From a virus (Duplodnaviria; Heunggongvirae; Uroviricota; Caudoviricetes), in IMG/VR virus record IMGVR_UViG_2534681673_000006, positions 1-15,337 of that record: a stretch of 15,337 nt of DNA. One strand, written 5' to 3'. The stretch's first letter is position 1. Every line of letters starts with the position of its first letter. The notes under the pieces are model-generated. The model did not search any database and was not told the DNA's origin. It was given only the letters and a program-made list of their open reading frames with translations. Positions 8,159 to 14,018 of the stretch are shown here, piece after piece. The position numbers and the translations under genes are program-made.

Positions 8159-8569
8159 TCAGAACGGAATATCATCACCGTAAGGGTCATCGCCTCCCGC
8201 TGGTGGCTGATTACCCTGTGTGCCTGTGGCTTTGCGTCTGTTCCCGCCAGGACGTGCCGCGCGGGCACTGATTACGCTGTCCGCAATAACCTGATACCCC
8301 TGCCGTGTTTCCCCGTTCTGTCCGGTCCACTGGCTTACCTGCATCGTGCCGGATACGCTGGCAACATCGCCTTTTTGATGTTTAGCCAGGAAATCGGCCT
8401 GTTTGCCAAATGCGATAACCGATAACCATAACGTCGCCTGTCCGTCATGTGCCTGGCTGCATGGCAACGATACCGCCATACGCGCCAGAGTCATCGGTGT
8501 GCCCTTGCTGCTCTGTTTTACCAGCGGGTCGTCCACCAGCCGCCCGTAAGCTGCAATTTGTGCTGTCAT
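8159..8569 (-). CDS. ssb: Single-stranded DNA-binding protein
   Basis: 136 aa; N-terminal OB-fold pattern (IAAYGRLVDDP...WLSVIAFGKQADFLAKHQKGD...VSQWTGQNGETRQGYQVIADSV), Gly/Pro-rich linker and the canonical acidic tail DDIPF. GAGGTGG SD. Confidence 0.85.
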   Translation of the reverse strand: MTAQIAAYGRLVDDPLVKQSSKGTPMTLARMAVSLPCSQAHDGQATLWLSVIAFGKQADFLAKHQKGDVASVSGTMQVSQWTGQNGETRQGYQVIADSVISARAARPGGNRRKATGTQGNQPPAGGDDPYGDDIPF

Positions 8570-8578
8570 ATTGCCACC

Positions 8579-8884
8579 TCAGTGAAGCGATCCGGCGTTG
8601 TTCTTTTTCATCTCTTCCATCATTTTTTCAGTGAGCATTACGCACTGAAAACCCATGCTTTTGATGTCTACGGGTTTCATGCCTTTGTCTGTGGATATCA
8701 CAGGCAGAATATCCTGATACACATCGCGGTCAGGGTAACTAAGCACACAAAGCGCCCATGATGCCACGGGTGAGGATCCTTCGTCTGTTTCAACCCACCA
8801 GCCTGGTGTAGCTGCGCTTATTTGCAGAATCGTGATCCGTCCGTTGTGCTTGTAAAATTTTTCACCAAATTTTGGTTCGCTCAT
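8579..8884 (-). CDS. Hypothetical protein, 101 aa
   Basis: ATGA overlap with the upstream gene and strong GGAGAGGTGG SD. No recognisable domain. Confidence 0.55.
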   Translation of the reverse strand: MSEPKFGEKFYKHNGRITILQISAATPGWWVETDEGSSPVASWALCVLSYPDRDVYQDILPVISTDKGMKPVDIKSMGFQCVMLTEKMMEEMKKNNAGSLH

Positions 8885-11495: not shown

Positions 11496-11928
11496 AACCC
11501 CCCCCATTTTCACAATCAGCAACAAGAATATTTTTAGCGTCATTCAGCGACCGCGTTGCGGTGTATCGGATACATTCCAGGGCGAATAGTGTGTATTCTT
11601 CCCTTTCTTCCTTTTGTGCAAGCTCTGCTGTGCATTCAATATCAATAAGCGCGTGCATCAGCGTAGTGAGTGCGGCGGCGGCTGCGTCCGGTGTGGTTTT
11701 ATTGCACATGTACCCCTCCGCATTTTTTTCGTTAGAAATAAGCGTTCTTCTTTCCTGTTCATCGATCAGGAATACGCAGACCTCACCGCTAAGGCGTTTA
11801 AGTAAGCCGATGATTGCCCCTGATTCGCTGTCGGTCATCATGCCTGGGTAATCCTCTGCCAGTGCGCAAATAACTTCGATTTGGTGGGCGCGTTCTGCTG
11901 CCTGTTGTAGTGTGATTTCCTGGCTCAT
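11488..11928 (-). CDS. Hypothetical protein, 146 aa
   Basis: GGGGGT SD; ATGA overlap with upstream gene. No recognisable domain. Confidence 0.5.
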   Translation of the reverse strand: MSQEITLQQAAERAHQIEVICALAEDYPGMMTDSESGAIIGLLKRLSGEVCVFLIDEQERRTLISNEKNAEGYMCNKTTPDAAAAALTTLMHALIDIECTAELAQKEEREEYTLFALECIRYTATRSLNDAKNILVADCENGGGYA

Positions 11929-12125
11929 AAGCCTACCCCCTGACGAATACGGGCGGCGAATACCATCACGCAGCCAGCCGGGGATTGCTGGCGTGCGTTC
12001 TGTTCGCTAGTGGCCTCGATGGTAATCACGCGCGGTTGTGCCGTGCTCAGGGCGATAAAACGCCAGGTGAATTTATTCAGGTTGTGCAAGTCCCGCCCTT
12101 GCGGGTGTGTGGTATGATTTCTCAT
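11925..12125 (-). CDS. Small protein, 66 aa, first gene of the leftward early operon; possibly Icd-like (tentative)
   Basis: Start at ATG 12125 with GAGGT SD. HPQGR and FAAR motifs resemble, from memory, P4-type Icd-like proteins. Downstream of the divergent operator region. Confidence 0.4.
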   Translation of the reverse strand: MRNHTTHPQGRDLHNLNKFTWRFIALSTAQPRVITIEATSEQNARQQSPAGCVMVFAARIRQGVGL

Positions 12126-12152
12126 AGCTACCTCGATACTGTTGCTATCGTT

Positions 12153-12197
12153 GGTGGTTAGACGCCCTGCATGTGTTGCGAGCACTGCGGGGCGTTG
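12153..12197. repeat. Conserved ~45-bp stem-loop element, copy A; copy B at 12943-12992
   Basis: ggttagacgccc(t/c)g(c/t)atgtgtt...cactgcggggcgttg; about 85% identical. Both copies can form a 10-bp stem with one mismatch; loops differ. Confidence 0.5.
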
Positions 12198-12223: not shown

Positions 12224-12279
12224 TGTGCGCACAGATTAAAATCATATGTGCGCACAGATTAAAATCATATGTGCGCACA
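12224..12279. promoter_or_regulatory. Operator array: three copies of perfect palindrome TGTGCGCACA in 23-bp tandem repeats, in the divergent promoter region
   Basis: Palindromes at 12224-12233, 12247-12256, 12270-12279; repeat unit tgtgcgcacagattaaaatcata. A partial half-site tgtgcgcc sits at 12317-12324 near a candidate TTAACA-17-TATTGT promoter for the RHH gene. Confidence 0.55.
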
Positions 12280-12353
12280 TGTCAATACTTAACATCTCAT
12301 TTTTTTTGCTGTATTGTGTGCGCCCATAAAGTCCATTTAAGTGAGGTGCATCA

Positions 12354-12551
12354 ATGTCTAGCGGTAACACAAACAACAAATCAGCAAAGAAAAATATTCG
12401 ATTCCCACATGAGCTTATAGATGGGATTGATGCCAGCGTTGAACAAGAAAAATTAACTAATCCTAGTGCTAATTTTTCCGCATGGGTCTTAGATGCCTGT
12501 GGACGCAAATTAAAATATGAACAGCGCCGGAAGGCCAAAGAATCAGAATAA
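12354..12551 (+). CDS. Ribbon-helix-helix (CopG/Arc-like) DNA-binding protein, cassette 1
   Basis: 65 aa; GAGGTG SD 5 nt upstream. KNIRFPHELIDGIDASVEQEK...SANFSAWVLDACGRKL fits an RHH strand-helix-helix. Paralogous to the 13113-13292 protein. Confidence 0.65.
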   Translation: MSSGNTNNKSAKKNIRFPHELIDGIDASVEQEKLTNPSANFSAWVLDACGRKLKYEQRRKAKESE

Positions 12552-12600
12552 TCACTATCAGCGCCGTGGTGTGAGGTACTACGGCGCATTGCTTTACAGG
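12527..12600 (+). repeat. ~74-bp near-identical junction element (second copy 13268-13341) spanning the RHH gene 3' end and a hairpin
   Basis: aaggccaaagaatcagaataat(c/t)actatcagcgccgtgg(t/c)gtgaggtactacggcgcattgctttacagg. Stem gcgccgtgg/ctacggcgc with a GAGG-containing loop. Confidence 0.55.
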
Positions 12601-12608
12601 GCAGTAAC

Positions 12609-12836
12609 ATGACCAACAACACACTATCACCAATACAAGACACGCAAACGCAAGATGATGAAATCATCCGGCAAAGGCAGTCAGAAGCCTGCGCCAGACT
12701 TGAGGAAGAACTAACCAGAACAAAAATACCACCACCAGCGCCGCGCTTAGTTCCACCAGAAAAATTTGCCCTTGAAGATTTTGTCGATAAATACCCACGG
12801 CGGCTTAAATCCGGCAAAAACCGACCGCCAGGATGA
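12609..12836 (+). CDS. Small partner protein, cassette 1, 75 aa, unknown function
   Basis: Starts MTN; C-terminal motif FALEDFVDKYPRR is shared with the cassette-2 partner (FVLDEFLKKYSR). Proline-rich middle. No known domain. Confidence 0.5.
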   Translation: MTNNTLSPIQDTQTQDDEIIRQRQSEACARLEEELTRTKIPPPAPRLVPPEKFALEDFVDKYPRRLKSGKNRPPG

Positions 12837-12999
12837 GTGCACAAAACCGAACTATGAAACGGATTATTCCGTTTCCGGGGCGTTTGTGTGTGTATAAAGA
12901 GTAAGCTATGCTCTTTTATAGCCATAATCGTTACCTCAATTAATGGTTTGGTTAGACGCCCCGTATGTGTTCCCATCACTGCGGGGCGTTGTTGTTTTG

Positions 13000-13092
13000 G
13001 GTGTATTTCACCTTTATTTTTAAATCTACATTCAGGTGAAATACACCGCAAGACTTTTTTTATCTTTTTTTTTGCGTATACTGAAATACACC
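13000..13092. promoter_or_regulatory. Operator/promoter of cassette 2: perfect 13-bp inverted repeat ggtgtatttcacc / ggtgaaatacacc plus a third half-site overlapping a TATACT -10
   Basis: Arms at 13000-13012 and 13035-13047 (22-bp spacer); tgaaatacacc at 13082-13092 directly after TATACT (13077-13082). AGGAG SD follows. Confidence 0.55.
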
Positions 13093-13112
13093 GATTATCA
13101 GGAGAACCAGAA

Positions 13113-13292
13113 ATGGCAACAGGTGCAAAGAACGCAAAATCACAAATGACAACGGTCAGAATCCCGCATGAGGTAATGACCGATATTGAGCAACTTAAAG
13201 AACCTGGCGAAAGTACCGCCGGATTTCTAGTTACGGCAGCAAAAGGCGAGATCAAACGCCGCCAGCGCCGCAAGGCCAAAGAATCAGAATAA
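13113..13292 (+). CDS. Ribbon-helix-helix DNA-binding protein, cassette 2
   Basis: 59 aa from ATG 13113 (AGGAG SD). TTVRIPHEVMTDIEQLK...TAGFLVTAAKGEIKRRQ is paralogous to cassette 1 with divergent DNA. Shared C-terminus RRKAKESE. Confidence 0.65.
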   Translation: MATGAKNAKSQMTTVRIPHEVMTDIEQLKEPGESTAGFLVTAAKGEIKRRQRRKAKESE

Positions 13293-13349
13293 TTACTATC
13301 AGCGCCGTGGCGTGAGGTACTACGGCGCATTGCTTTACAGGTACACACA

Positions 13350-13553
13350 ATGACCAATAAAGAATCAACCAATACACCATCGCAAAAAACGAACAGAGAG
13401 CACGAAAATATGGCGCTCGAGCATGAATCAGAAAGATTCGCTCCATGCGCTTTTGTCCTTGATGAGTTTCTAAAAAAATATTCACGTTCTGAACGGATGA
13501 AAATGGCAGCACAATACGGCCCCAACAAGCAAGGTAATTGCCCACCAGCCTGA
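13350..13553 (+). CDS. Small partner protein, cassette 2, 67 aa, unknown function
   Basis: Starts MTN; same position relative to the junction hairpin as the 12609 gene; shares the F.L(E/D)(D/E)F..KY.R motif. Confidence 0.5.
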   Translation: MTNKESTNTPSQKTNREHENMALEHESERFAPCAFVLDEFLKKYSRSERMKMAAQYGPNKQGNCPPA

Positions 13554-13621
13554 TCACGGTTATCATGTTCGGGCTTATGATTGTTGACACATACGGCGCA
13601 GCGGGTTAATTGTTCAGAAAG

Positions 13622-13649
13622 GCGGTTCCATATCGGGACCGCTTTTTTT
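13622..13649 (+). terminator. Rho-independent terminator of the plus-strand RHH operon
   Basis: Stem gcggttcc/gggaccgc (8 bp, one G.U), loop atatc, followed by TTTTTTT. Confidence 0.6.
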
Positions 13650-13765
13650 ATGCCTGAAAATACCCTATAGCATGGCTTTTCAGATTCACCAGGGCGAACG
13701 AATCCCCGCCCCTGTACGGGCGTATATTTCATCATGGTTATACCTCAGTATTATGGCGTTTATTC

Positions 13766-13829: not shown

Positions 13830-14018
13830 TTAGTGAACTGCCTTGCAGCTATCCTTCCAGGCCAAAACCTCAGATAAAGACCAGCCAACAGAACGCCCGC
13901 CAAGTTTACGACGTGATGGGAATTGTCCGGCCTTTTCCAGGCGGTAGCGGCATGAGCGGCTAAGGCCTGTTAGCTTTTCGCATTCTTTTTCACGTATAAA
14001 CCGATCAGTGCTTAACAC
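13830..14018 (-). CDS. alpA: AlpA-family transcriptional regulator / excisionase-like HTH protein
   Basis: 62 aa; RFIREKECEKLTGLSRSCRYRLEKAGQFPSRRKLGGRSVGWSLSEVLAWK matches the AlpA/Xis-type HTH pattern. Apparent GTG start with GGGGG SD. Adjacent to integrase. Confidence 0.75.
   Translation of the reverse strand: MLSTDRFIREKECEKLTGLSRSCRYRLEKAGQFPSRRKLGGRSVGWSLSEVLAWKDSCKAVH

Follow-up and report, generated by a model that had tools for sequence, protein, structure and literature searches.

A conserved stem-loop junction between regulator and partner genes at a gene-shuffling site of Escherichia phage satellites

The closest described systems and the satellite locus

Stem-loops located between the cistrons of an mRNA set differential expression within the operon, as in the malE-malF (REP), puf and pap operons. 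In the immI region of phage P22, a structured stretch with the sar antisense RNA separates the cistrons arc and ant. Linker or boundary sequences that are conserved at the module junctions of mosaic lambdoid phages were reportedly described by Clark et al. in 2001.

The stretch of DNA analysed here (the window, 15,337 nucleotides) is a capsid-forming phage satellite of E. coli, of the cfPICI type. Its minus strand encodes an integrase, AlpA, an Icd-like protein, a RepA-type helicase, the capsid protein, a prohead protease, a portal protein and TerL, while the plus strand carries two cassettes, each composed of a gene of the YlcI/YnfO family and a small unannotated partner gene. In cassette 1, the upstream gene (RHH-type gene 1; 12354-12551, plus strand, 65 aa) matches NF041551 YlcI_YnfO_N with 59 bits, and also DUF3950. 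It is followed by partner gene 1 (12609-12836, plus strand, 75 aa), which belongs to a family with a FALEDF motif and is an orphan confined to Escherichia and Shigella. In cassette 2, RHH-type gene 2 (13113-13292, plus strand, 59 aa; NF041551, 62 bits) precedes partner gene 2 (13350-13553, plus strand, 67 aa), a member of the same family as partner 1. Cassette 2 is closed by a canonical intrinsic terminator (GGCGGTTCC...GGGACCGC and then TTTTTTT, at about 13620-13650, plus strand). The alpA gene (13830-14018, minus strand; Phage_AlpA), a counterpart of P4 vis, converges on this terminator, with about 180 nt between the terminator and the alpA 3' end. On the other side of the cassettes, the Icd-like or Kil-like gene (11925-12128, minus strand; NF033153, 69 bits) leads the leftward replication operon.

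The junction between the two genes of each cassette resembles the malE-malF REP, puf and pap elements in being a stable GC-rich hairpin between cistrons, placed beyond the footprint of the terminating ribosome, devoid of a U-tract and conserved with its operon. It differs from them in not being a REP sequence, in travelling with the downstream gene and in doubling as a recombination boundary. The likeness to the arc-ant region of P22 consists in a small, probably RHH-type gene followed by a short structured region that carries the RBS of the next gene, all within an immunity-type region. Here, however, no opposite-strand promoter was found (the minus strand of 12600-12700 and 13340-13440 had no promoter-like site in a consensus scan, which is not decisive), the hairpin of the minus strand is weaker and has no U-run, and the partner is an orphan of 57-75 aa rather than an antirepressor. 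Like the linkers of lambdoid phages, the junction is a short conserved stretch between non-homologous modules that are reassorted by homologous recombination; unlike them, it overlaps a structured RNA and an RBS, and some of its substitutions preserve base pairs. The element is an undescribed, genus-restricted intercistronic or 5'-UTR stem-loop that marks a site of gene shuffling, and as such it is fairly ordinary. The architecture of the cassettes, which are embedded antisense in a long open frame, is more unusual than the element itself.

Anatomy, conservation and reassortment of the junction

A preliminary description of the window had proposed a 74-nt repeat, about 95% identical, at 12527-12600 and 13268-13341. 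The coordinates proved to be right, and the two copies are 95.9% identical, with three differences (12530, 12553 and 12570). The conserved block reaches further to the left, to 12522 and 13263 respectively, and 76 of the 79 positions of 12522-12600 and 13263-13341 are identical. On the right, the 8-nt spacer between CAGG and the partner start is diverged (2/8 identical between the copies of the window), and identity returns past it, at the partner start ATGACCAA (12609-12616). Between the two cassettes, the promoter, the body of the RHH gene, the partner gene and the 3' flank show an identity of 0.46-0.54 in global alignments, against 0.49-0.51 for shuffled sequences; at the protein level, identity is 41% for the RHH pair and 26% for the partners. 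The conservation of DNA beside diverged coding sequence, which had also been claimed, was borne out by these shuffle-level flanks, and the pattern holds across the whole family.

The order of parts is the same in both copies: the basic C-terminal tail of the RHH-type protein with the stop codon, a 9-nt spacer, a GC-rich stem-loop of 27 nt, a tail with CAGG, an 8-nt spacer and the partner ATG. In copy 1, the 3' end of the RHH-type gene that forms the left part of the block (12522-12551, plus strand) encodes the tail QRRKAKESE and the stop codon, and the corresponding end of RHH-type gene 2 (13263-13292, plus strand) likewise encodes the conserved tail and the stop codon. The hairpin announced in the preliminary description was confirmed, running from G12561 to C12587 (GCGCCGTGG / CTACGGCGC, plus strand) and from G13302 to C13328 (plus strand). 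Nine base pairs form in both copies, with an extension to 11-12 bp in copy 1, and pair 8 is a G·U; in copy 2 a T to C change at 13311 opens the upper stem. The conserved tail ATTGCTTTACAGG with the partner SD, CAGG (12597-12600), and the variable 8-nt spacer occupy 12588-12608 (plus strand), and the same parts of copy 2 occupy 13329-13349 (plus strand), with CAGG at 13338-13341. CAGG is a weak SD. It lies 10 nt 3' of the stem and the partner ATG (12609) 22 nt 3' of it; the stem itself holds no SD. The loop does contain the GTGAGGT that had been pointed out as SD-like, in agreement with the preliminary description, but as a conserved SD-like feature this motif does not stand, since loops with GTGAGTA and TGCGGTGAA are common. 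An SD-like loop was for this reason rejected as a functional feature, GAGT and GCGGTGAA versions being among its variants.

The same spacing recurs throughout the family. Of 97 unique cassettes, 95 have 9 nt between the end of the upstream stop codon and the stem, and the other two have a different upstream gene. The partner ATG stands 21 nt past the stem with about ten exceptions among the 97, nine of which have lost the partner gene and retain the hairpin. The comparison of homologous elements was made on 2153 cassette pairs differing in both the upstream and the partner allele group. For these non-allelic pairs, identity in 10-nt bins is 0.65-0.92 over 12519-12618 and 0.22-0.51 outside, and the block is more conserved than its neighbours across the family. 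The spacer 12601-12608 reaches approximately 0.2-0.7, with one invariant A. Many cassettes were retrieved by a pattern fixing the outer four stem pairs, which inflates the apparent conservation of these pairs. In the profile, this pattern fixes six positions on the left of the stem and about ten on the right; the picture is unchanged in the cassettes retrieved through protein or BLAST searches. The partner-anchored set is unbiased toward the hairpin and small.

Eleven upstream allele groups and seven partner groups are seen in 30 combinations among the 97 unique cassettes, which makes the block a recombination boundary between regulator and partner alleles. Two of the 11 upstream groups are RHH types with a different tail (...RGIEPKG). 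A single hairpin variant can be found with up to six upstream alleles and with essentially one partner allele. In CP148318 (L105 / L232, 3192753-3193742), the variant zone holds four small plus-strand genes, including a tandem of two partner-family genes. A junction hairpin of its own stands before each of the two, and neither gene follows an RHH-type stop codon at the usual spacing. Since the hairpin variant tracks the partner allele and the tandem partners each have a hairpin, the hairpin appears to belong to the 5' region of the partner gene. As one hairpin variant is tied to one partner group and meets up to six upstream alleles, the crossovers fall mostly in the left part of the block. 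The best E. coli relatives of the window are 96-99.8% identical to it from exactly 12522 to 13700 and have no match left of 12522, which places a breakpoint at this very position in the ancestry of the window.

Of 5426 complete E. coli genomes, 1615 contain the 87-nt block; the 2133 places show 75-99% identity and are almost all chromosomal. A phage collection of 50,697 records gave no match to the block. In all 14 annotated E. coli examples it lies between the gene of an alpA-type HTH regulator and the Icd-like gene of a satellite, and annotated relatives have one or two cassettes at that position. Every instance examined is located in the regulatory zone of phage satellites (PICI/cfPICI). 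Homologues of YlcI are widespread in Enterobacterales; the block was not found behind the YlcI homologues of 37 other species or in 54 viral contigs, E. coli-type loci excepted. The partner family, which carries no annotation, is present in Escherichia and Shigella only, and a partner-protein search of viral contigs returned one locus only. The YlcI homologues of Serratia, Xenorhabdus, Proteus and others have another, canonical terminator, AAAGGGTAGCATTCGC.GTGCTACCCTTTT, about 20-100 nt past their stop codons (loci L004, L005, L010, L017, L018 and L028), in which compensatory changes are visible (TAGCA/TGCTA versus TCACA/TGTGA).

The stem-loop and the explanations of its conservation

The predicted folding energy of the 27-nt stem-loop alone is -17.8 kcal/mol for copy 1 and -14.9 kcal/mol for copy 2, and the 46-nt segments give -19.3 kcal/mol (z -3.1) and -16.4 kcal/mol (z -1.8), respectively. 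The preliminary description had suggested a covariance analysis across homologous elements, and its outcome is mixed. The first 41 variants showed no covariation in the stem, and distant versions of the hairpin were added via the loci of divergent partner proteins. Over 28 distinct sequences, all from one genus and not independent of one another through recombination, 92.5% of the cells of the 9-bp stem are paired; none of 500 shuffles reaches that value, and slid controls reach 23-56%. Changes on both sides occur at pairs 1, 2 and 5 (GC to UA once and CG to UA at two pairs), and double substitutions preserve the stem in the diverged variants L231, L238 and L245. Statistically, however, the covariation is weak: the number of pairs with double changes (three) is matched by 55 of 500 shuffles, and the covariation score of 0.175 by 37 of 500, which makes this signal suggestive rather than decisive.

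The two strands do not pair equally well. Paired cells amount to 92% for the plus strand and to 80% for the minus strand. At pair 8, the invariant G·U can form only on the plus strand, its minus-strand equivalent being a mismatched A·C. Of the single changes, those compatible with pairing on the plus strand alone outnumber those compatible with it on the minus strand alone by about 17 to 7 variant cells. Among 53 variants, the mean hairpin energy is -13.7 kcal/mol for the plus strand, -10.5 kcal/mol for the minus strand and -7.3 kcal/mol for shuffled sequences, and the plus-strand fold is the more stable one in 45 of them. Pair 7 is broken in 18 of the 53 variants, and there are a few weak folders (-5.6 and -6.6 kcal/mol). 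The G·U changes, the few compensatory changes and the folding energies favour a hairpin in plus-strand RNA. Of the RNA-level reading proposed earlier, a plus-strand RNA hairpin is the part which gained support, and the element may have a role in processing or stability, or in coupling. The reading of the hairpin as an occlusion structure for the partner gene fails: the partner SD lies outside the stem, on its 3' side, and folds that might sequester it in another way are not conserved, a second local fold covering the SD being present in copy 1 only.

The explanation favoured here, with modest confidence, is that the element is a conserved junction of a regulator-partner module containing a cis-acting stem-loop of the plus strand, which is kept by selection and used as a crossover site. 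Its descriptive part is secure, and the role given to the stem-loop is the tentative part. The RHH-type regulator and the small orphan partner would form a two-gene module in the regulatory ('Bro') zone of Escherichia satellites. The stem-loop would form in the rightward (plus-strand) mRNA and act in cis, within what we infer to be the 5'-UTR of the partner gene, just past the reach of a ribosome that terminates translation of the regulator, and 21 nt before the start of the partner gene, whose SD is weak. Its most likely role would be that of a barrier or stabiliser through which the regulator and partner transcripts are set at separate levels, whether it caps the regulator cistron at the 3' end, a processed partner cistron at the 5' end, or both, or modulates partner expression in some other way. 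Selection on the stem, the RBS and the basic protein tail would maintain the sequence between diverged cassettes, and homologous recombination among satellites, with the block as the crossover site, would homogenise it further. It seems that the element is most likely a stability or expression element of the partner 5'-UTR, and that the block is probably conserved for a function and exploited by recombination rather than being merely a linker.

It is unlikely that the element works instead as a leaky Rho-independent terminator, an attenuator at which most rightward transcripts would stop after the regulator gene and less of the partner would be made. Such a role would suit the GC-rich stem of -15 to -18 kcal/mol followed by ATTGCTTTAC, the classification of copy 1 as terminator-like in a terminator scan, the canonical terminator that directly follows the YlcI homologue of other genera, and the nine E. 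coli cassettes that have the hairpin and no partner gene. The U-tract, however, is poor, with a T-score of 1.45 against 4.07 for the canonical terminator at about 13623-13650, and the d-scores of -27 and -37 compare with +1.8 for the terminator at the cassette end (the score serves as a relative measure only). Moreover, the tails of the variants are not kept U-rich (ACAGGGTTAC, ATTGCTATGC and ACCGCTTTAC), and copy 2 is absent from the listing of the terminator scan. With a U-tract that is poor and not conserved among the variants, efficient intrinsic termination was rejected as the main function.

An equally improbable explanation is that the noncoding part has no function of its own and is a recently arisen sequence, propagated through recombination or gene conversion, that hitch-hikes with the protein tail and RBS, both of which are under selection. 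Reassortment across the block is indeed extensive, the whole family is restricted to Escherichia and Shigella, the covariation is statistically weak and some variants fold poorly. Yet the block is present in all 30 allele combinations although both flanks are saturated, and the divergence of the internal 8-nt spacer means that the tract is not simply young. The preservation of the stem by double substitutions in L231, L238 and L245 and the bias of transition-type changes toward plus-strand pairing, about 17 to 7, also speak against simple hitch-hiking. As for the recent gene-conversion tract suggested in the preliminary description, a private conversion between the two copies was rejected, because each copy carries the variant typical of its own partner allele, the block is kept across E. 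coli, the stretch 12522-13700 is 99.8% identical in another strain and the spacer inside the tract is diverged (2/8).

The antisense frame, the regulators and the place of the cassettes in satellite control

The cassettes lie opposite a stop-free frame of 500 codons (12245-13744, minus strand), a counterpart of P4 eta, which extends from just below alpA through both cassettes and contains the junction elements in antisense orientation. The other two minus-strand frames have 26 and 49 stops in this interval, and the best minus-strand frame has at least seven stops in each of 2000 dinucleotide shuffles. In synonymous recoding, the plus-strand genes alone leave the frame open in 10-22% of the trials, so that the signal of openness comes mainly from the intergenic parts of the plus strand and from conservation across genera. 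In most of 91 loci, drawn from many genera of Enterobacterales, a frame of this kind encloses the YlcI gene in antisense orientation, and in all but three the third codon position of the frame is opposite the third position of YlcI. In several relatives (L002, L041 and L237) the frame runs unbroken from the alpA stop to the icd stop; in the window it is out of register with icd by one frame shift. A domain search of the long frame gave no match besides the terminal Icd-like domain. In the loci L231 and L237, another gene caller predicts a long minus-strand ORF (341-380 aa) overlapping the plus-strand genes. In the E. coli RefSeq records L040-L042, L098, L100 and L104, PGAP places minus-strand pseudogenes annotated as 'Icd-like', 'BRO-N', 'ash' or 'hypothetical' over the cassettes, and the partner gene, and sometimes the RHH gene, is left unannotated on the plus strand.

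The arrangement recalls the c4-icd-ant region of P1 and the immunity region of the P4 left operon, in which vis is followed by eta, with kil nested inside eta, and which also holds the CI RNA and seqA. There, a gene of the alpA/vis type is followed by a long frame ending in a domain of the Icd/Kil type. In P4, the end of vis is overlapped by the open frame 8171-8821, of which the last 65 aa (Kil) score 76 bits with NF033153. The eta and kil genes, their coupling to the alpA homologue and the role of eta translation in preventing termination have been described (PMC10111431), in a study that names this zone the Bro zone of PICIs and makes no mention of RHH genes on the opposite strand. According to that work, translation of the long frame of P4 prevents Rho-dependent termination. 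The window differs from P4 and P1 in having no RNA of the CI, C4 or isrK type and in carrying RHH-partner cassettes antisense in the frame instead; in P4, neither an RHH gene nor a counterpart of the junction hairpin was found. In Rfam 15, the window had no match at gathering scores and the element had none at E<=10, C4/CI-type RNAs and isrK included.

This setting raises the possibility that the element acts via the other strand or via contacts with RNA or protein. The stem-loop could be a recognition site at which the rightward regulator-partner mRNA pairs with the fully complementary leftward alpA-eta-icd transcript, in a P4-like, RNA-based control of read-through, or it could be a protein site in DNA or RNA, for example, as a speculation, for CsrA at the GGA of the loop and the SD. 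In favour of this, the leftward frame that contains the element is clearly selected to stay open; the frame is the counterpart of P4 eta, and there RNA-RNA pairing controls termination (PMC10111431); and the primary sequence is kept beyond the needs of a generic hairpin. Nevertheless, such a mode of action is judged quite improbable, as the minus strand pairs worse (80% against 92%, with A·C at pair 8 and -10.5 against -13.7 kcal/mol), the loop sequence is not conserved in the wider family, the Rfam search gave no C4, isrK or other match even at E<=10, and the scan showed nothing promoter-like from which a sar-type antisense RNA could start. A U-turn motif of the YUNR type in the loop of the minus strand was dropped because it fits the narrower variant set only, is too common by chance and lies in a loop that is not conserved in the wider set.

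A more specific version, for which the probability is lower still, makes the stem-loop the recognition or nucleation site of a sense-antisense switch, in which the regulator-partner mRNA would pair with the alpA-eta-icd transcript and cause premature termination or cleavage. To reach the replication genes, that leftward transcript has to be translated across all of the cassette region. If this were true, the cassettes would be a protein-plus-RNA counterpart, in Gram-negative PICIs, of the immunity exerted by the CI RNA of P4, and the conserved sequence would let co-resident satellites cross-regulate one another.

A second hairpin repeated between the cassettes, named D3 here and absent from the preliminary description, is located at 12155-12197, in the icd leader, and at 12949-12991, with 88% identity between the copies. 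Read on the minus strand, either copy is followed about 25 nt downstream by an SD and an ATG (icd at 12128 and, 24 nt from copy 2, the ATG at 12925 in the frame of the long ORF). On the plus strand, copy 2 is followed by TTGTTGTTTTGG, and together they may end cassette 1. D3 and the junction hairpin show marginal similarity (p about 0.003 for one pair, the other not significant), and in Rfam D3 has a weak match to the R1162 antisense RNA (E=5.5). A 12/13 complementarity between 13587-13599, in the 3' flank of cassette 2, and 12958-12970, in an arm of D3 copy 2, recalls the pairing of seqA and seqB in P4; about one such match is expected by chance in 2.2 kb.

The upstream genes of the YlcI/YnfO type probably encode ribbon-helix-helix proteins. 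Apart from NF041551 and DUF3950, the profile matches are Pfam RHH_1 with E=0.021 for one allele, a HicB-like profile with E=0.22 for RHH1 and the N-terminal domain of NikR with E=0.002. The AF2 model consists of an extended N-terminus and two helices (pLDDT 74), and no PDB match was found by sequence or Foldseek. The global repressor of Gram-negative PICIs is not known, according to Fillol-Salom et al. (PMC6092414). Since the RHH genes are divergent from the icd operon and allele-specific repeats are found in between, they appear to be candidates for this missing repressor. The operator-like repeats comprise, at 12224-12279, TGTGCGCACA three times with a spacing of 23 bp and, at 13000-13093, GGTGTATTTCACC / GGTGAAATACACC plus TGAAATACACCG twice. 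Each set is allele-specific and is located between the leftward unit and one of the RHH genes. The minus strand also has a perfect TTGACA (12286-12281) and, 16 nt beyond it, TTTAAT, in overlap with the first repeat set; this pair, which was read by eye and does not appear in the promoter scan, could represent a PLE-like promoter.

The block is present in about 30% of E. coli genomes and lies in the zone that decides the expression of the satellite replication operon. On account of the operator-like repeats and of their antisense position in an eta-like frame that needs translation, the RHH-partner cassettes are good candidates for the missing control of PICIs. For the study of these cassettes across their alleles, the junction offers one invariant handle, at which PCR primers, probes or mutations can be placed.
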